Notes under the pieces: model-generated | Told to the model about the DNA's origin: nothing | Seen by the model: only the letters and a program-made list of their open reading frames with translations | Databases searched by the model: none | Part shown: positions 30,614 through 42,107 of the stretch, piece by piece | Layout of the letters: every line of letters begins with the position of its first letter | How positions within the stretch are numbered: the stretch's first letter is position 1 | Origin: Candidatus Oxydemutatoraceae bacterium | Lineage (GTDB): Bacteria; Pseudomonadota; Gammaproteobacteria; Poriferisulfidales; Oxydemutatoraceae | Assembly: GCA_965218975.1 (NCBI GenBank) | Contig: OZ244717.1 | Location: 594,347 to 658,346 of the forward strand | Direction: 5' to 3' | Length of the DNA: 64,000 nt | Position numbers and translations under genes: made by a program

Positions 30614-31124
30614 GAGCGGCTAACTCACTTTATTCTATCCGGGCATGCAACAGCGAAAAGCAATAGAGTTGATAGAGCATGCCGGTTTAAATGTCAATGA
30701 GATCATCTTGCGCAAGTTTGAGTTTCTTTGCTCGCGCTTAAAGATATTAGAAGGGCACACTCTTTGTCGACCCGGTAGCTGTTTGTGATGATGCGCCATA
30801 GATAAGTTTCTGTTATACGTGCCCGGATACCATACCGGATTTTGGACCTAAGAAAGTAACATTAATAATCTAGTCTACTCCAAAGACGGCAGACGTCACA
30901 TTCTATTTGATGCGAGCCGTATGGAAGCAAAAGCCGGAGGTGATGTCTTGGATGGGAAACCAATCTTGTCAGGCAACACAACATTAAGCGAGCTTAAATT
31001 ACTTGCGCTAGAAACTGTACGATGCCACCCTAAATGGGATTTTTGAAGGGCTTCGGGGGAAGCGTTCGGCAGTAACATTCGGATCGGTGCTTTCTGTCCG
31101 TTGCCGGCATGAGGACGGTGCAGG

Positions 31125-32563
31125 GTGAGACGCGCCCGGAAAACCAATTGGTTTTCAGCGGTGAACGACCCGACAAGGATGTCGGGGCTGGGGCTTGTTG
31201 ACAGAACCCAGTCGCGTCATGGGTGAGACGCGCCCGGAAAACCAATTGGTTTTCAGCGGTGAACGACCCGACAAGGATGTCGGGGCTGGGGCTTGTTGAC
31301 AGAACCCAGTCGCGTCATGGATGACAGGCACTTTGCCGACAATCCGGCACAATCCGCCGAAAATCCACCAACAAACACAAAACGGTTTCATCAGCTCAAA
31401 GATTTTATTGCTGCCGAGATTCGGATAAGCTTGGCGCAGGGTGAGACGCGCCCGGAAAACCGATCGGTTTTCAGCGGCGAACGACCCGACAAGGACGTCG
31501 GGGCTGGCGTTCATTAACAGAACCAAGTCTCGTCATGGGTGAGACGCGCCCGGAAAACCAATTGGTTTTCAGCGGTGAACGACCCGACAAGGATGTCGGG
31601 GCTGGGGCTTGTTGACAGAACCCAGTCGCGTCATGGATGACAGGCACTTTGCCGACAATCCGGCACAATCCGCCGAAAATCCGCCAACAAACACAAAACG
31701 GTTTCATCAGCTCAAAGATTTTATTGCTGCCGAGATTCGGATAAGCCTGGCGCAGGGTGAGACGCGCCCGGAAAACCAATTGGTTTTCAGCGGTGAACGA
31801 CCCGACACGGACGTCGGGGCTGGGGCTTGTTGACAGAACCCAGTCGCGTCATGGGTGAGACGCGCCCGGAAAACCAATTGGTTTTCAGCGGTGAACGACC
31901 CGACAAGGACGTCGGGGCTGGGGCTTGTTGACAGAACCCAGTCGCGTCATGGATGACAGGCACTTTGCCGACAATCCGGCACAATCCGCCGAAAATCCGG
32001 CAACAAACACAAAACGGTTTCATCAGCTCAAAGATTTTATTGCTGCCGAGATTCGGATAAGCCTGGCGCAGGGTGAGACGCGCCTGGAAAACCGATCGGT
32101 TTTCAGCGGCGAACGACCCGACAAGGACGTCGGGGCTGGCGTTCATTAACAGAACCAAGTCTCGTCATGGGTGAGACGCGCCCGGAAAACCAATTGGTTT
32201 TCAGCGGTGAACGACCCGACAAGGACGTCGGGGCTGGGGCTTGTTGACAGAACCCAGTCGCGTCATGGGTGAGACGCGCCCGGAAAACCGATCGGTTTTC
32301 AGCGGTGAACGACCCGACAAGGACGTCGGGGCTGGGGCTTGTTGACAGAACCCAGTCGCGTCATGGACGACAGGCACTTTGCTGAAAATCCACCAACAAA
32401 CACAAAACGGTTTCATCAGCTCAAAGATTTTATTGCTGCCGAGATTCGGATAAGCCTGGCGCAGGGTGAGACGCGCCTGGAAAACCGATCGGTTTTCAGC
32501 GGCGAACGACCCGACACGGACGTCGGGGCTGGCACTCATTAATAGAACCAAGTTTCGTCATGG
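31125..32563. repeat. Higher-order tandem repeat array: ten 98-bp R units and four ~120-bp S units arranged [R R S]x3 [R R R S'] [R ...], period 316 bp
   Basis: Variant a of R is GTGAGACGCGCCCGGAAAACCAATTGGTTTTCAGCGGTGAACGACCCGACAAGGATGTCGGGGCTGGGGCTTGTTGACAGAACCCAGTCGCGTCATGG. Variant b has GAAAACCGATCGGTTTTC, a compensatory change that keeps a perfect 18-bp palindrome. S is ATGACAGGCACTTTGCCGACAATCCGGCACAATCCGCC...GATTCGGATAAGCCTGGCGCAGG. Not coding, since 316 is not a multiple of 3 and stops occur in all frames. Confidence 0.9.
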
Positions 32564-32694
32564 ACGACAGGCACTTTGCTGACAACCCGCTGGCGCCTCT
32601 TACGCGGCGCTTTGCCGCGATCATGTAAGGCGCTGAGGCCAATGCGGCGATAACGCCGACGCCAGCGGTACAAAGTACTGCGACCGATCTTAAA

Positions 32695-32732
32695 TGCGTT
32701 CGGGAGTTACAACCCTCCCAAAATAATAGGGC
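32695..32732 (+). repeat. Left copy of a 36-38-bp imperfect direct repeat bracketing the IS1595-cargo unit
   Basis: AGTTACAACCCTCCCAAAATAATAGGGCATCATATTTC here versus AGTTACAACCCTGCCAAAATGAGGGCATCATATTTC at 35117-35152. Confidence 0.8.
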
Positions 32733-32792
32733 ATCATATTTCTGTTGAGCCGTTGTGTTCATAATAGCCTCTATTTTTGAAGCAAAATTGGC

Positions 32793-32890
32793 TCATATAG
32801 AAACCTTTGATGCGGTGGCCGATGTGCTGATATTGCATATCGGTTACCTTTTCGAGTCGTGCCGTGAGTCCCATATGTATCTGGCACTAT
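32793..32890 (+). repeat. ~100-bp element directly upstream of the transposase gene, repeated at 40545-40660
   Basis: ATAGAAACCTTT...GATGCGGTGGCCGATGTGCTGATATTGCATATCGG...GAGTCGTGCCGTGAGTCC...ATGTATCTGGCAC here, versus GATGCGATGACCGATGTGCTGATATTGCATGTCGG...GAGTCGTGCCATAAGTCCTGTATGTATCCGGACAC at 40545-40660. Confidence 0.7.
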
Positions 32891-32922
32891 ACATGATACG
32901 CTTGTAAAATGGAGGTGTTTTT

Positions 32923-33867
32923 ATGAAAAAAAGCAAATACAGTAACACGTTGAGCCTGTTTAATGCTATGAAAAAGTTTCCAACAAATGAGCAGGCTACC
33001 AAACATTTGGAAATAGTGCGTTGGGGAGGCAAGGCAAAGTGCCTATATTGTTTAACGCGCAATAAAATATCAGCGCGTAAAACCATAGGTCGCACGGCTG
33101 GACAATATCGTTGTAATTGTTGCCACAAAGAATTTACGGTGCGGACTGGCACTATCTTTGAAAAATCTCATTTACCATTGAATAAATGGATGTTTGCTAT
33201 TTACTTAGTACAAACTGCACGCAAGGGCATATCATCGTTACAATTAAGTAAAGAATTAGGCATTACTCAAAAGACAGCGTGGTTTATGCTTCACCGTATC
33301 CGCGAGGCGTGTAAAGGTGATTTGACCAAACTAACCGGCATTGTAGAGATAGACGAAACCTATATTGGCGGGAAAGAAAAAAACAAACATAAAAACAAGC
33401 GATTAAAGGCTGCCCGTGGAGCAGTTGGTAAAACTGCTATAGATGGTATGCGTGAACGCAAAGGCAAGGTTGAAGCAATGCTGATTGATAACACAGACCA
33501 ACATACACTACAAACGGCGATTCACCGCAATATCAATGTCGGTAGTCAGTTATACACCGATGATCATCGCGGTTATGCTGGATTGGATGGCGTGCTATAT
33601 CAGCATAAAAGTGTTAAGCATTCCGCTAACGAATATGTAAATGGTATGGCGCATACCAACGGCATAGAAAGTGTGTGGGCGGTGTTAAAGCGCGGCGTTA
33701 ATGGGACCTATCACAACATTACCACCAAACATTTACAGCGTTATGTTGGTGAATTTACGTTTCGGTTGAATGAGGGCAACGTTGAGCGACACACAAAACG
33801 ACGCATAGACAGTGTGCTTGCGGGGGCGATAGACAAACGATTAACATACAAAAGGCTAATATCATAA
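32923..33867 (+). CDS. IS1595-family (ISXO2-like) DDE transposase
   Basis: 314 aa; N-terminal zinc ribbon CLYCLTRNK...YRCNCCHKEF; DDE residues in IVEIDETYIGG, LYTDDHRGY and HTNGIESVWAVLKR. Confidence 0.8.
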   Translation: MKKSKYSNTLSLFNAMKKFPTNEQATKHLEIVRWGGKAKCLYCLTRNKISARKTIGRTAGQYRCNCCHKEFTVRTGTIFEKSHLPLNKWMFAIYLVQTARKGISSLQLSKELGITQKTAWFMLHRIREACKGDLTKLTGIVEIDETYIGGKEKNKHKNKRLKAARGAVGKTAIDGMRERKGKVEAMLIDNTDQHTLQTAIHRNINVGSQLYTDDHRGYAGLDGVLYQHKSVKHSANEYVNGMAHTNGIESVWAVLKRGVNGTYHNITTKHLQRYVGEFTFRLNEGNVERHTKRRIDSVLAGAIDKRLTYKRLIS

Positions 33868-34508
33868 TGCCTTCTATTACCGCACAACAGTTTAATACTG
33901 CATTGCAGATTATATTGGATGTAAAACCTATTACCCCGATAGGGCGTATCGCTAATTATATGAAAGAAACCAAGTATCCCAATGGGTTACATGCAGGTGA
34001 TGATGGCCGGATACTTGGTATATGGGTTATGGGCAATAACTATAAAGTTAAATCAGACTATTATGGTGGTTATCCTGCTGGTTATCTGAGGCGCATTAAA
34101 GCATTATTCCCTGACAAGCATAATCCCTTGCATTTATTTTCCGGTAAAGTTGAGTTGGATATTTTGGGGGGGGATACAGTAGATATGGATGAGGAATTAG
34201 AGCCAACATTTATTGATGATGCGCAAACATTAGTAAATGTACCGATAGAAGAATACGATTTGATATTGGCTGATCCGCCATACTCGGTTGAAGACGCAGA
34301 CCATTATAAACCGACAATGGTTAAGCGAAATAAAGTTATGAGTTCATTGGGCAAACGGGCAGTAAAAGGAACTCATGTGGTATGGTTAGACCAAGTGTTA
34401 CCGATGTATCGTAAAGATCAATGGGATATGATTGGACTGATAGGAATGGTTAAAAGCACTAATCACAGATTTAGAGTTATAAGCATTTTTGAGAAATGCG
34501 CAAGTTAG
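33867..34508 (+). CDS. Small SAM-dependent amino-methyltransferase with a DPPY catalytic motif
   Basis: 213 aa; putative motif I HLFSGKV ~50 aa before ILADPPY, spacing like RsmD and small gamma-class N6A MTases; start ATG overlaps the transposase stop (TAATG). Confidence 0.5.
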   Translation: MPSITAQQFNTALQIILDVKPITPIGRIANYMKETKYPNGLHAGDDGRILGIWVMGNNYKVKSDYYGGYPAGYLRRIKALFPDKHNPLHLFSGKVELDILGGDTVDMDEELEPTFIDDAQTLVNVPIEEYDLILADPPYSVEDADHYKPTMVKRNKVMSSLGKRAVKGTHVVWLDQVLPMYRKDQWDMIGLIGMVKSTNHRFRVISIFEKCAS

Positions 34509-34966
34509 AGTTAGAGCATAAATACGTGCTTGATTTAACCGATAAAATTCAGTTGGGGCCGATAAAAAGGCAGGTATTATATGAGCGTTTAACAGACGCA
34601 CGCATATCTGGTTTGTTAGTTGAGGATTTGGCTGATGCTATCTATAACAACGTTACCAAATCACCATCCCCAGCGTCCTCGTATGATCTAATGGATGATG
34701 ATGGCAATAAGTACGAAAGCAGGATTGTAAATATGAGGGGTGCTTCTTTAATCCCTGCAAATCAGGTCGGGAGTGGTCGCCGCTATAATCGCGAAAATCA
34801 TTTAGCGAAATTGGCAAGTTTATACGCATATTTGTTTGTAGATGTAAGAAGTTCGCCAGTGTTTAGTATAGTGGCATTCCCCGTAGGGATTTTGGGGGAG
34901 CGTAAAAGAATAACGACTATCCGGTTTGATGAACTAGTGAAGCCTATTCCAGTTACTAATATATGA
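34496..34966 (+). CDS. Hypothetical 156-aa protein, third gene of the IS-associated cassette
   Basis: Overlaps the MTase gene by 13 nt; no recognisable motif; a restriction-endonuclease partner role is a guess. Confidence 0.35.
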   Translation: MRKLELEHKYVLDLTDKIQLGPIKRQVLYERLTDARISGLLVEDLADAIYNNVTKSPSPASSYDLMDDDGNKYESRIVNMRGASLIPANQVGSGRRYNRENHLAKLASLYAYLFVDVRSSPVFSIVAFPVGILGERKRITTIRFDELVKPIPVTNI

Positions 34967-35116
34967 ATAGGAGTAAAGTATATAATTCCCATTTAAATCA
35001 ACCCGATTTTTAAGGTCTTTATAGCCGCGTTCTTTACTAAAAATTGCGGCAAACATCAATTTCCCCATTGGCCAATCTCAAATCTCAAGAGTATCATACT
35101 TACTTTCATTTTCTTC

Positions 35117-35152
35117 AGTTACAACCCTGCCAAAATGAGGGCATCATATTTC
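35117..35152 (+). repeat. Right copy of the 36-38-bp direct repeat, abutting the stop codon of the ABC ATPase gene
   Basis: See feature 32695-32732; ~90% identity with a 2-nt indel. Confidence 0.8.
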
Positions 35153-35900
35153 AGCCGAGCACATCGGGAAACTTTTGCAGTATTTCCTTATGCAGGGACT
35201 CAATTGCATCTGAAGTACGTTTCTCCTCAGTGAAAAGCGGCAAGTCGGCAACGAGCGTTGCCGGCCGTTGCGCCACAATCAACAAGCGATTGCCAAGGAG
35301 TAAGGCTTCGCGCAGATTATGTGTGACAAATAACACTTTGCGCGGTGCAATTTCCAGTTGCGATTGCAACAGTTTGCGCAATTGCATTGCGGTGAGCTCG
35401 TCAATGGATGAGAAAGGCTCGTCCATCAACAGCAAAGGGGCATTCACGGCGAATGCACGCGCTAAAGCAACGCGACGACACATCCCTAGAGACAGGGTTG
35501 CGGGATACTGATCAACCGCGTGTTGCAGCTTCATTCTTTCAAGCAGCCAGTCGACGTTATCTTGTTGCTGCGGGTTTTGTAATACCAGAGTGATATTTTC
35601 TCTGACCGTGCGCCACGGCAATAAACGGGATTCCTGAAATACATAGGATAGCGGCAGACTGTCTTTATCGAACGGCGGCAAAGTGATGTTGCCGCAATAG
35701 TCACGATCAAGATTGGCAACGAGGTTAAGCAGAGTTGTTTTGCCGCAGCCTGACGGGCCTGTGATCATCACCACTTCGGTATTGCGAACCTGAAATTCTA
35801 TATCACGCAGGATGGTCGTCTGTTCACCGTTGTAGCCAATAAATTTCTTATGCTTGATATTGACACGTAGAGGCGAGAAATGAATGTCTAAATCCGCCAT
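35151..35900 (-). CDS. ABC transporter ATP-binding protein (nitrate/sulfonate/taurine NrtC-SsuB-TauB type)
   Basis: Walker A GPSGCGKTT, signature LSLGMCRR, Walker B LLLMDEPFSSID. Confidence 0.85.
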   Translation of the reverse strand: MADLDIHFSPLRVNIKHKKFIGYNGEQTTILRDIEFQVRNTEVVMITGPSGCGKTTLLNLVANLDRDYCGNITLPPFDKDSLPLSYVFQESRLLPWRTVRENITLVLQNPQQQDNVDWLLERMKLQHAVDQYPATLSLGMCRRVALARAFAVNAPLLLMDEPFSSIDELTAMQLRKLLQSQLEIAPRKVLFVTHNLREALLLGNRLLIVAQRPATLVADLPLFTEEKRTSDAIESLHKEILQKFPDVLG

Positions 35901-39539: not shown

Positions 39540-40358
39540 TCAGCTTTGTGTCAAAGGCCACTGCGACGCGAATATTTTCTTGCGCGAGTCAACGACTTGA
39601 ACCGATAGCGCTTGAGTTTTATCGGTCGGCATATATGCGAAGTCAAAACTGGGATTTTCGCTGAACGAAATATCTCCCTTGACCGCAAAGATTACATCAC
39701 CGACCTCGTTCTTAACCTCAACGGTTTCTATATAGTGCGGAGGAATAAAGTAAGTTGTGATCTGATCCTTTTGCAGACCCGAATAATTCGGATGCATGAT
39801 TGAGAGGTGGAAACTGTAAGCGTTGCCAGGTGCAACAGGTTTCTCCTGCGTTAAGCTGGTTTTGCCCATCATCAGTTTGGCCATGGCATCATCACCCATA
39901 GGCGGCGCCGAACATCCGCCTGAAGCCTTAACAAAAACGGTGCTCATATACAGTTCGCCTTTGTTGGTTTGCGCGATAGCGCGCACGGTGCTGTACTCGT
40001 TGACTCGAATGCGCGTGCCGATGCTTGCCGACGTTTGCGGCGATAAGCTAAAATGGGCTGCTATAGGCGAAGGGTTTTTATCGACAACTAGATAGTGGTC
40101 GGTAATAAACTCTGTGCCGTTTTGCGGGTAAGAGGAAAGAATCTTGACGGTGACGTCACCGCCGTTGGCCGGACGGGCGGGCACATCCAAACTAATCACT
40201 CCGGCGCCGTCTCGGACCGGCCGGTCCTTAAACAGGTAATGCCGGATGTCTTTCCAGGCGCGCTCATCTTTTTGTTCTACGGACCAGACCGTTCCGATCG
40301 CCAGTGTTGTGCCTGCCGCCACAGTTGAGATTAGAAATTTACGTCGAGCTAATTCCAT
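39540..40358 (-). CDS. Tat-secreted fused SoxY-SoxZ-like sulfur carrier protein
   Basis: Twin-arginine signal RRKFLISTVAAG; mid-protein Cys motif KASGGCSAPP where stand-alone SoxY ends in GGCGG; followed by a SoxZ-sized domain. Confidence 0.5.
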   Translation of the reverse strand: MELARRKFLISTVAAGTTLAIGTVWSVEQKDERAWKDIRHYLFKDRPVRDGAGVISLDVPARPANGGDVTVKILSSYPQNGTEFITDHYLVVDKNPSPIAAHFSLSPQTSASIGTRIRVNEYSTVRAIAQTNKGELYMSTVFVKASGGCSAPPMGDDAMAKLMMGKTSLTQEKPVAPGNAYSFHLSIMHPNYSGLQKDQITTYFIPPHYIETVEVKNEVGDVIFAVKGDISFSENPSFDFAYMPTDKTQALSVQVVDSRKKIFASQWPLTQS

Positions 40359-40544: not shown

Positions 40545-40660
40545 TAGAAACCTTTCTGCCTATGCGTTCCACGCAGACAGGTGATGCGATGACCGATGTG
40601 CTGATATTGCATGTCGGACACTTTTTTGAGTCGTGCCATAAGTCCTGTATGTATCCGGAC
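40545..40660 (+). repeat. Second copy of the ~100-bp element found upstream of the IS1595 transposase
   Basis: See feature 32793-32890. Confidence 0.7.
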
Positions 40661-40677: not shown

Positions 40678-41334
40678 CTAGGCAATACTTCCATTCAAAT
40701 CATACAGTTCACACATTTGCGCTAAAAATTGCGTTTGTCCACCATAACTAGGATGACGTACTTGAATAACTTTGTCTCGTTTATCTCGAGCGCATAAGCG
40801 GAGCGCTGTTTGCATTGCATCATTGCCTATTGCAATCAACCGACCCGGCTTCAACAGCCGAATAAGTTGGGAGAGAAATTCCTCACCGGATCGTTGCTCG
40901 AAAGAATTATGAGGGCGGTTACTGAAAGGGCTGTGAGGCTCGTGAGGGTGTAGTGGAAAAACATTCCAAAGAAAGACAGATGCGTCAACTCGTGAAAGAA
41001 CCTGCCAGATGACAGCCGCAGTTCGCTCAATAACCACTTTCCCCCTCGTTGGCCGATTTATAGATAAACCCCACCGCTGAGCGTGAGCATGAATATGAAC
41101 ATCATCTGTTAAGGCAAGCCCTGTTCTCCTGCCGCCACGATAGCCCAGATCGCGTCCAATCCAGAGAGAATCAATTTCCTGTTCTGTTGCTACCTCAAGC
41201 ATGGATTGCAACATCTGTGCTCTACTACGCGGTGCGTCATCCAAGTCGTGAACAGCACAACGGTTTGAATAAGGATTAAACGTATTTTCAAAATTCAACC
41301 CACACAATTCTCCCACATATTGGGCCGGCCTCAT
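40678..41334 (-). CDS. Divergent uracil-DNA-glycosylase-superfamily protein (family-4-like; catalytic motif A altered)
   Basis: 218 aa; WIGRDLGYRGGRRTGLALTDD aligns to motif A GE(A/G)PG...G.PF.G.AG with Glu and Pro replaced; C-terminal HPS motif (VRHPSYGG). Confidence 0.55.
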   Translation of the reverse strand: MRPAQYVGELCGLNFENTFNPYSNRCAVHDLDDAPRSRAQMLQSMLEVATEQEIDSLWIGRDLGYRGGRRTGLALTDDVHIHAHAQRWGLSINRPTRGKVVIERTAAVIWQVLSRVDASVFLWNVFPLHPHEPHSPFSNRPHNSFEQRSGEEFLSQLIRLLKPGRLIAIGNDAMQTALRLCARDKRDKVIQVRHPSYGGQTQFLAQMCELYDLNGSIA

Positions 41335-41351
41335 GTCTTACCCTTTCTCAT

Positions 41352-42107
41352 CTATTGACTTGTACTTAATAGTACGGGTTCCTCTCTGTTTGTTTTTGGC
41401 CCTGCCGGAATTTCATCGTATGTGCGATTATTAAGTATTCGACCATTTCGGTGCTTTTGAACGCCACCCCATTGTTTGAAAAAGAACGATGCGCCAAACG
41501 TTCTGCACTGATCCTTGATTGACAGAACCCAATCTTCTTTCATTGGTCTTGCGCCGGGCCCGGACTCTCCGCCGACAATAACCCAGTGAATACCTCTTAA
41601 CGGCAGATCATCGACAGGACCAATCAGTGGTTCACAAGAGAGAAAACGTGTATGAGAAGGAACTTCCCGCAAATCATGGATACGCTGATAAACCCGATCG
41701 TCTTCTACACTAACACCCATCCAGATATTTGGTGTCCACTTGAGCTTGTTCGCCAGGGATTTCAGGCGCCCGCTGCGTTTGGTGAGAATCTGGAAAATGT
41801 GTTGGGAACAATCGTTCATCGTTTTGAATGCTTGCTCGATAAATCCGGTTGGTACGTTTTGGTGGAAAATATCGCTCATGGAGTTGACGAATATCATGCG
41901 GGGTGAGCGCCATTTGCGGGGCGCATCCAATAAATCTTCGTGCAACGTTAGTTTGAAACCGTTTCGGTAGCGCTTATTTCCCATCAATTTGAGGCGACGG
42001 GACATACGTTCCGCATAGCAGTGCTTGCAGCCGGCACTGACCTTCGTGCAGCCCGTGACGGGGTTCCAAGTCATTTCAGTCCATTCAATTTTGGAGCGGG
42101 ATGTCAT
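41352..42107 (-). CDS. Phage Gp37/Gp68-family (DUF5131) protein with N-terminal CxxxxxxCxxC cluster
   Basis: 251 aa; the N-terminus TWNPVTGCTKVSAGCKHCYAERM is characteristic of the Gp37Gp68 family; 17 nt upstream of the UDG-like gene (co-operonic). Confidence 0.6.
   Translation of the reverse strand: MTSRSKIEWTEMTWNPVTGCTKVSAGCKHCYAERMSRRLKLMGNKRYRNGFKLTLHEDLLDAPRKWRSPRMIFVNSMSDIFHQNVPTGFIEQAFKTMNDCSQHIFQILTKRSGRLKSLANKLKWTPNIWMGVSVEDDRVYQRIHDLREVPSHTRFLSCEPLIGPVDDLPLRGIHWVIVGGESGPGARPMKEDWVLSIKDQCRTFGASFFFKQWGGVQKHRNGRILNNRTYDEIPAGPKTNREEPVLLSTSQ

Follow-up and report, generated by a model that had tools for sequence, protein, structure and literature searches.

The concept of the transporter insertion sequence (tIS) was defined on the IS1595 family (Siguier, Gagnevin & Chandler 2009, Res Microbiol 160:232, as relayed in PMC3129680). 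Transposon-like restriction-modification (R-M) units with inverted repeats (IRs) and an 8-bp target duplication have also been described (Furuta, Abe & Kobayashi 2010, NAR 38:2428; PMC2853133). In the same work, an R-M unit of N. gonorrhoeae includes a degenerate COG3677 transposase-like gene, and "insertion with long target duplication" is described for R-M units of all types. Here we analyze a 64-kb stretch of DNA from Candidatus Oxydemutatoraceae bacterium (contig OZ244717.1, positions 594,347 to 658,346), referred to below as the window, and describe what survives of an IS1595-family insertion sequence (IS) at approximately positions 32885-34990. We judge it probable, at roughly 0.8, that this is a truncated tIS with a compact Type II R-M cargo, a methyltransferase gene (M) followed by the gene of a PvuII-like nuclease (R), lying between the transposase gene (tnp) and the right terminal IR (IRR).

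Results

The three-gene locus and its right end

Three genes follow one another on the plus strand of the window, with coordinates taken from the open reading frame (ORF) list: an IS1595-family DDE transposase of 314 aa (32923-33867), a DPPY amino-methyltransferase of 213 aa, M (33867-34508), and a PvuII-like PD-(D/E)XK nuclease of 156 aa, R (34496-34966). The TAA stop of tnp and the ATG start of M have one A in common at the junction ATCATAATGCC, and the M and R genes overlap by 13 nt. An initial annotation of this DNA had reported three co-oriented, overlapping ORFs and an ILADPPY motif in the 213-aa protein; the coordinates, the shared base and the 13-nt overlap were all found in the sequence, and the motif is present at residues 132-139 and does not vary among 40 homologues. 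The span then given, 32733-35116, contains the element and is slightly wide for the remnant. GC content is 0.40 in the segment versus 0.49-0.50 in the flanks, and each of the three genes lies at 0.39-0.42. Because its GC is lower than that of the flanks, the tnp-M-R segment looks like recently acquired foreign DNA. An Rfam scan of 29.5-41.5 kb gave no match, and a scan for promoters and terminators gave matches at chance frequency only. One promoter-like site, CTGGCA-18-TAAAAT at 32881-32910, straddles the truncation junction described below, although such matches are no commoner than chance.

A direct search for IRs in 32400-35400 yielded nothing convincing. The IR was defined independently, from multi-copy relatives, before the window was searched. 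Its source was one gammaproteobacterial metagenome-assembled genome (MAG) with eight related transposase loci (L020, L023-L027, L030 and L031, L-numbers being locus labels throughout), which comprise five copies of a 1457-bp IS together with 1451-bp and 1459-bp variants. Perfect 8-bp target site duplications (TSDs) are present at seven of the eight loci, and the ends aligned from these copies read GGGAATTATATACTT(T/G)ACTCC. The IR (GGGAATTATATAC) is a 21-mer that occurs once in the window, 3 nt past the R stop, with no matches in 100 shuffles. This IRR, at 34970-34990, reads GGGAATTATATACTTTACTCC on the minus strand and is identical to the IR of the relatives at 21 of 21 positions. Since the IRR follows the R stop and none follows the tnp stop, M and R lie inside the element. 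The proposals that no IS end intervenes after the transposase, and that the methyltransferase and the small ORF travel with it, are thereby borne out: M starts on the stop base of tnp, the only IR of the window follows R, and the TSDs of the relatives enclose their cargo. The same annotation had found no terminal IRs by eye, which holds for the left one (IRL) and fails for the right.

A search of the whole 64 kb for an IRL with up to 3 mismatches retrieved only the IRR, and within the 2.9 kb upstream the best candidate was mismatched at 8 of 21 positions. Thus, of the two terminal IRs expected in the IS1595 family, the window holds the IRR only. Across 46 related elements, the median distance from the transposase start to the outer end of the upstream IRL is 74 bp. 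In the window, 38 bp of IS leader with a GGAGG ribosome-binding site survive (32885-32922, plus strand), and a 77-bp repeat takes over to the left of 32885. The copy is 5'-truncated, having lost the IRL plus approximately 35 bp or more of leader. Because the IRL is lost, the truncated copy is probably immobile, a stranded remnant. The right flank of the IRR, ATTTAAAT (34991-34998), is the expected right copy of a TSD and stands where the relatives have AT-rich 8-bp duplications. No matching 8-mer was found beside an IRL in the window.

The transposase and related elements

The 314-aa protein combines a DDE transposase domain with an N-terminal zinc ribbon, as do IS1595 family members. It matches the NCBIfam model NF033547 "IS1595 family transposase" (E 6.4e-62) and Pfam DDE_Tnp_IS1595 (PF12762; E 5.5e-42), and it matches Zn_ribbon_IS1595 (PF12760) at 4e-05 with 23.9 bits, slightly under the Pfam cut-off of 25.4 bits. 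Of the 62 columns conserved at 93% or more in 47 relatives, 60 are matched, and the conserved residues include the zinc-ribbon cysteines C40, C43, C64 and C67 as well as D144, D213 and E249. Judged by its sequence, the transposase is apparently intact.

Relatives were gathered as 80 loci of related transposases (41-59% identical, one genome per species), in which an IRL was sought 30-120 bp upstream of tnp and paired with an IRR downstream. The two could be paired in 46 of the 80 loci, and perfect, AT-rich 8-bp TSDs bracket the whole unit in about 39 of these 46. Intact relatives share one layout, in which the IRL is followed by approximately 74 bp with a promoter and ribosome-binding site, tnp, the cargo and the IRR. 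Units measure 1.37-5.8 kb, and the distance from the tnp stop to the IRR is 0.35-4.8 kb. These relatives are tISs. Often the start of their first cargo gene coincides with the tnp stop or is only a few bases away, as in the window. In the ISNwi1 group, the transposase is of the DDE(K) type, cargo follows tnp, the repeats are of 8 bp and passenger-carrying members measure 1.75-4.75 kb. The ends tabulated in ISfinder for ISNwi1, "ggnnatTAT", are fitted by GGGAATTAT, and the element is tentatively placed in this subgroup.

R-M components make up the great majority of the cargo proteins scanned, and restriction or modification genes are present in at least 22 of approximately 35 distinct cargo-bearing relatives. 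Methyltransferases of several types are represented: C5-cytosine (two in L004; L012, L062), N6_N4 (L005, L008, L029, L032, L040, L044), EcoRI-type (L011) and Dam-type (L070), along with methyltransferase-HNH fusions (L019, L050, L052, L074) and a methyltransferase-Mrr fusion (L049). Other elements carry GmrSD (L056, L057), a Type I S subunit (L037) or Mrr_cat (L013). The second cargo gene encodes a PADLOC REase_II or HNH protein in L004, L007, L011, L012, L029 and L040, a GIY-YIG protein in L062 and a PD-(D/E)XK protein in L070. Cargo outside R-M consists of P63C/KilA-N proteins, a Replic_Relax protein, helix-turn-helix (HTH) regulators and nested ISs. This census suggests that R-M cargo is typical of one IS1595 lineage and no isolated case.

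The smallest related IS (1451-1459 bp, the eight MAG loci) encodes a 100-aa ORF that matches HSDR_N_2 with 24.6 bits against a 25-bit Pfam cut-off. Because of this weak match, even the minimal element may retain a remnant of a restriction gene, a putative HsdR N-terminus (L023).

The nuclease and methyltransferase families

R matches the PADLOC model PDLC03550 REase_II over most of its length (E 3.9e-13). It had no match in Pfam (E<=1), NCBIfam or PHROG, and PDB sequence searches with R (phmmer) and with a 60-sequence profile returned chance matches only. An indexed search found a single close relative (P0002, 55%), whereas a full scan by HMMER, using a profile built from two sequences, defined a family of 279 representative clusters of approximately 150-170 aa. 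A metagenome scan found no relatives of R. Conserved in the family alignment are D64, E74-x-(K/R)76, a P-S-x-M-x-G-x-G-R loop and a V-D-x(4)-P strand. The R of the window keeps D64, E74-x-R76 and the G92/G94/R95 loop.

An AlphaFold2 model of R (60 sequences) was very confident, with a predicted local distance difference test (pLDDT) score of 95.9 and a predicted template modeling (pTM) score of 0.90. In Foldseek, its top PDB matches are the PvuII structures 1k0z and 1pvu, at probability 0.99-1.00, a template modeling (TM) score of approximately 0.45 and 14-18% identity. The next matches are the Eco15I N-terminal domain, NhoI, the homing endonuclease I-Ssp6803I (PD-(D/E)XK), HinP1I, HincII and NlaIV. 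The model thus identifies R as a small PvuII-like PD-(D/E)XK nuclease, the likeness being at the level of fold only; R has no profile match to the PvuII sequence family. R is presumed to be a Type IIP restriction endonuclease.

The only strong profile match of M is PHROG 3816 "DNA methyltransferase" (E 1.4e-47, full length), and its matches to PADLOC MTase_II are weak (approximately 0.008). Scans of Pfam and NCBIfam at E<=1 returned nothing except a spurious holin match, and PDB sequence searches with M and with its profile gave chance matches only. An alignment of 40 homologues shows three stretches without variation, LHLFSGKV (motif I-like), ADPPYS (motif IV) and GMVKSTNHRFR, and the M of the window keeps every invariant residue of the family. 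The family comprises approximately 3,600 clusters, with identities that are typically 65-77% along about 190 aa. Members from marine, freshwater, soil and gut metagenomes remain approximately 70% identical, and such conservation is unusual for an R-M methyltransferase. The AlphaFold2 model of M has a Rossmann methyltransferase fold (pLDDT 82.8).

Taken as a pair, M has the motif I and (D/N/S)PP(Y/F) motif of a Type II R-M methyltransferase, and the adjacent R has, in its predicted fold, the nuclease architecture and catalytic motif of a Type II endonuclease. M is presumed to be the modification enzyme of the pair. It is read as a DNA methyltransferase because its gene overlaps that of R, because the corresponding slot in sister elements holds DNA methyltransferases, and because of the PHROG label.

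Recurrence and decay of the unit

The same order of genes recurs at L001, a 297-kb metagenome contig with an unrelated neighborhood, where a decayed IS1595 transposase (31%), M (70%) and R (55%) are encoded by overlapping genes. At L084 (3341-4791), the transposase is internally deleted, M is intact (69%), residues 12-45 are all that is left of R, and the IRL is degenerate. In the sponge symbiont AqS3 (L002 and L003), M is joined in frame to the N-terminal part of the transposase, and R is absent (L002, 8001-9116). Four further close homologues of M (L085-L088) stand alone. DNA alignment of the window with L001 and L002 aligned only the coding regions and did not reveal the ends, and a search for IRs around L001 and the orphan-M loci found none. 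The series running from the window through L001, L084 and L002 to the orphans illustrates how an orphan M could arise.

More distant homologues of R recur with another partner. At L170 (725-3154), a transposase (43%) precedes a 265-aa NPPF methyltransferase and an R homologue (39%), with a conserved IRR at the contig end; an IRL-like sequence was seen there by eye only. The same NPPF methyltransferase-R pair is found at L169 (1192-2468) with no transposase. Because L170 and L169 pair R with an NPPF methyltransferase of approximately 260 aa, the R family is, as these sequences indicate, repeatedly IS1595-borne and has exchanged methyltransferase partners.

Flanking repeats and neighborhood

Next to the truncated left end, and outside the IS, is the 77-bp repeat (32808-32884), which is 84% identical to 40582-40658. 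The differences between the two copies are mostly synonymous in a minus-strand frame (..GL(T/M)ARL(E/K)KV(T/S)DMQYQHIGHRI..), as would be expected of a small coding fragment with a paralogue. The low-GC segment as a whole lies between the two copies of an imperfect direct repeat of 46 bp. The left copy (32705-32750, plus strand) is 85% identical to the right copy (35117-35160, plus strand), with a 2-bp indel, and the stop codon of a minus-strand ABC ATPase gene (35151-35900) falls within the right copy. Judged by eye, the left copy corresponds to the N-terminus of a minus-strand, HTH-transposase-like pseudogene (approximately 32570-32762). The 46-bp repeat was considered as a pair of att sites or as a target duplication of the IS; the latter was rejected, as this family makes 8-bp TSDs. 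It may be a pre-existing local repeat, the region being rich in repeats.

Directly upstream of the IS remnant is a tandem array at 31120-32580 (possibly from approximately 30900 to 32590) with a GC of 0.56. It has nested 98-bp and 316-bp periods; the 316-bp unit is present approximately 3.6 times with 95% identity, and Rfam gave no match. On the other side of the element, a SoxY-SoxZ fusion protein is encoded at 39540-40358, pointing to a sulfur-oxidizing host, and adjoining genes for a DUF5131 protein (phage Gp37/Gp68-type, E 5.9e-98) and a UDG-superfamily protein occupy the minus strand at 40678-42107. Over the whole window, three 4-bp palindromes are strongly depleted, with observed and expected counts of 142 and 297 for GGCC, 179 and 286 for TCGA, and 289 and 391 for TGCA. 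This depletion is consistent with restriction avoidance and is not attributable to the tnp-M-R unit.

Discussion

The proposal that a minimal R-M system rides as cargo of this IS, made in the initial annotation as a possibility, is supported by the REase_II match and predicted PvuII-like fold of R and by the PHROG DNA methyltransferase match of M. Several findings weigh against it. With neither an IRL nor a second TSD copy in the window, transposition here is inferred from one end. The closest transposase relatives (41-59% identical) are without this M or R. At 80 metagenome loci with homologues of M (L089-L168), none has a transposase or R-family neighbor. The R of the window has Ala at position 88, where at least 90% of the family has Ser (the P87-S88 motif). 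Finally, the nearest solved folds of M in Foldseek (TM approximately 0.5) are the tRNA N2-methylguanosine (m2G) enzymes TrmN and Trm11, not DNA methyltransferases. By eye, some neighboring ORFs at L089-L168 look lysine-rich and virus-like.

The S88A replacement at a nearly invariant position of R and the loss of the left end of the IS would both fit a module in decay, in which only M still functions, as an orphan, with R inactive or being lost, as at L084 and L002. These loci and L085-L088 do show M kept while the transposase and R are reduced or gone. Against this, R is full length, retains the D64/E74/R76 motif and the G92/G94/R95 loop and has a very confident predicted fold, and the three ORFs are uninterrupted in a segment whose low GC suggests recent arrival. 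We regard decay of the module as unlikely.

About equally unlikely, in our estimation, is that an IS already truncated was integrated together with donor flanks by "insertion with long target duplication", leaving the 46-bp repeat. By analogy with such insertions, which are documented for all R-M types (PMC2853133), the repeat may be their trace. It brackets the low-GC segment, and the 126 bp separating the IRR from its right copy are also low in GC (0.34). However, the two copies are only 85% identical with an indel in a region full of other repeats, and the 77-bp piece within the segment has a chromosomal paralogue.

The likeness of M to TrmN and Trm11 raises the question of whether M is an RNA methyltransferase (m2G-type, RsmD/TrmN-like) with an unrelated 156-aa ORF beside it and no R-M system at all. 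The DPPY motif is common to m2G RNA methyltransferases, and homologues of M are mostly solitary. Since TrmN and Trm11 are themselves DPPY-type, the fold of M alone cannot separate a DNA from an RNA substrate, and by the same token the likeness reflects a generic DPPY Rossmann fold only. An RsmD profile was one of two outcomes, the other being an IR directly after the transposase stop, that the annotation had named as fatal to its proposal; M has no match to RsmD/Cons_hypoth95 or any other RNA-methyltransferase profile in Pfam or NCBIfam at E<=1, including any rRNA methyltransferase, and PHROG 3816, labeled DNA methyltransferase, is its best match. In addition, the overlap of M with the gene of a PvuII-like REase_II homologue is seen at three loci, and bona fide DNA methyltransferases occupy the corresponding position of sister elements. 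An RNA methyltransferase is therefore very improbable.

That the IS ends directly after the transposase, with M and R as abutting host genes, is hardly credible: its boundaries cannot be read from both sides for want of a left IR, and its closest transposase relatives lack this M and R, but an IR cannot fit between a tnp stop and an M start that share a base, the window has its only IR past R, relatives hold their cargo within IRs and TSDs, a low GC of 0.39-0.42 is common to all three genes, and the trio is found again in unrelated genomic contexts.

For a truncated tIS with Type II R-M cargo, the following course of events may be envisaged. The genes tnp, M and R would be expressed on one transcript from the tnp promoter and be translationally coupled, and in a newly entered cell M would be made ahead of R. 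To judge from the families involved, M would methylate a short, probably palindromic site as an N6-adenine or N4-cytosine enzyme, and R would cut the same site when unmethylated. As with other R-M pairs, the two would provide phage defense and post-segregational stabilization of the element. Loss of the IRL and of about half of the 5' leader would then have fixed the copy as a low-GC island with three intact ORFs.

More tentatively, and as less likely than not, we propose that the IS1595 (ISNwi1-like) lineage with GGGAATTATATACTTGACTCC ends is a specialized shuttle of R-M genes and of other restriction genes, in which the methyltransferase gene is typically start-coupled to the transposase stop, the partners form a mutualistic selfish alliance, and decaying units are one of the sources that feed the very abundant and highly conserved orphan family of M. 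If this is true, the IS would supply mobility and the R-M system addiction and defense. In the searchable literature, we found no statement that the cargo of this IS1595 lineage is R-M of almost every class, and no characterization of these M and R families.

The locus offers a clean sequence-level example of a minimal R-M system traveling inside a one-transposase IS in the order tnp-M-R. New R-M enzymes could conveniently be sought by way of this lineage, those met here being candidates from two families that lack a Pfam model, one of uncharacterized PvuII-like nucleases and one of methyltransferases, and the unit is a tractable system for asking whether R-M cargo stabilizes IS elements. For the host genome, the significance is modest, amounting to one probable extra methylation motif and one fixed foreign island.

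Comparison with known systems

Like the window element, IS1595 tISs have a DDE_Tnp_IS1595 transposase with an N-terminal zinc ribbon and carry their cargo between tnp and the IRR; unlike them, the window copy is without an IRL. The transposon-like units of Furuta and colleagues have R-M genes inside imperfect IRs with an 8-bp TSD, as do the relatives of the window element. The window differs from those units in that its transposase is apparently intact and clearly of the IS1595 family and its cargo is a minimal M plus R of uncharacterized families, and the pattern spans dozens of related elements where theirs were single cases.

R.PvuII (Type IIP, CAGCTG; 1pvu, 1k0z) resembles R in size, at 157 aa versus 156 aa, and in its D...E-x-K/R core, but not in sequence, given the 14-18% identity, TM score of approximately 0.45 and lack of a profile match. 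The methyltransferase of the PvuII system is a larger, SPPY-type N4-cytosine enzyme, from which M, a 213-aa DPPY enzyme, is distinct. PHROG 3816 shares with M the placement of motif I ahead of motif IV (DPPY). Most members of the M family are orphans outside any IS, and the family has no Pfam or NCBIfam model and no solved relative. On our reading, then, the window element belongs to a kind already known, a tIS with Type II R-M cargo, to which the location of its right end, the loss of its left end and the pattern across its lineage are added here.

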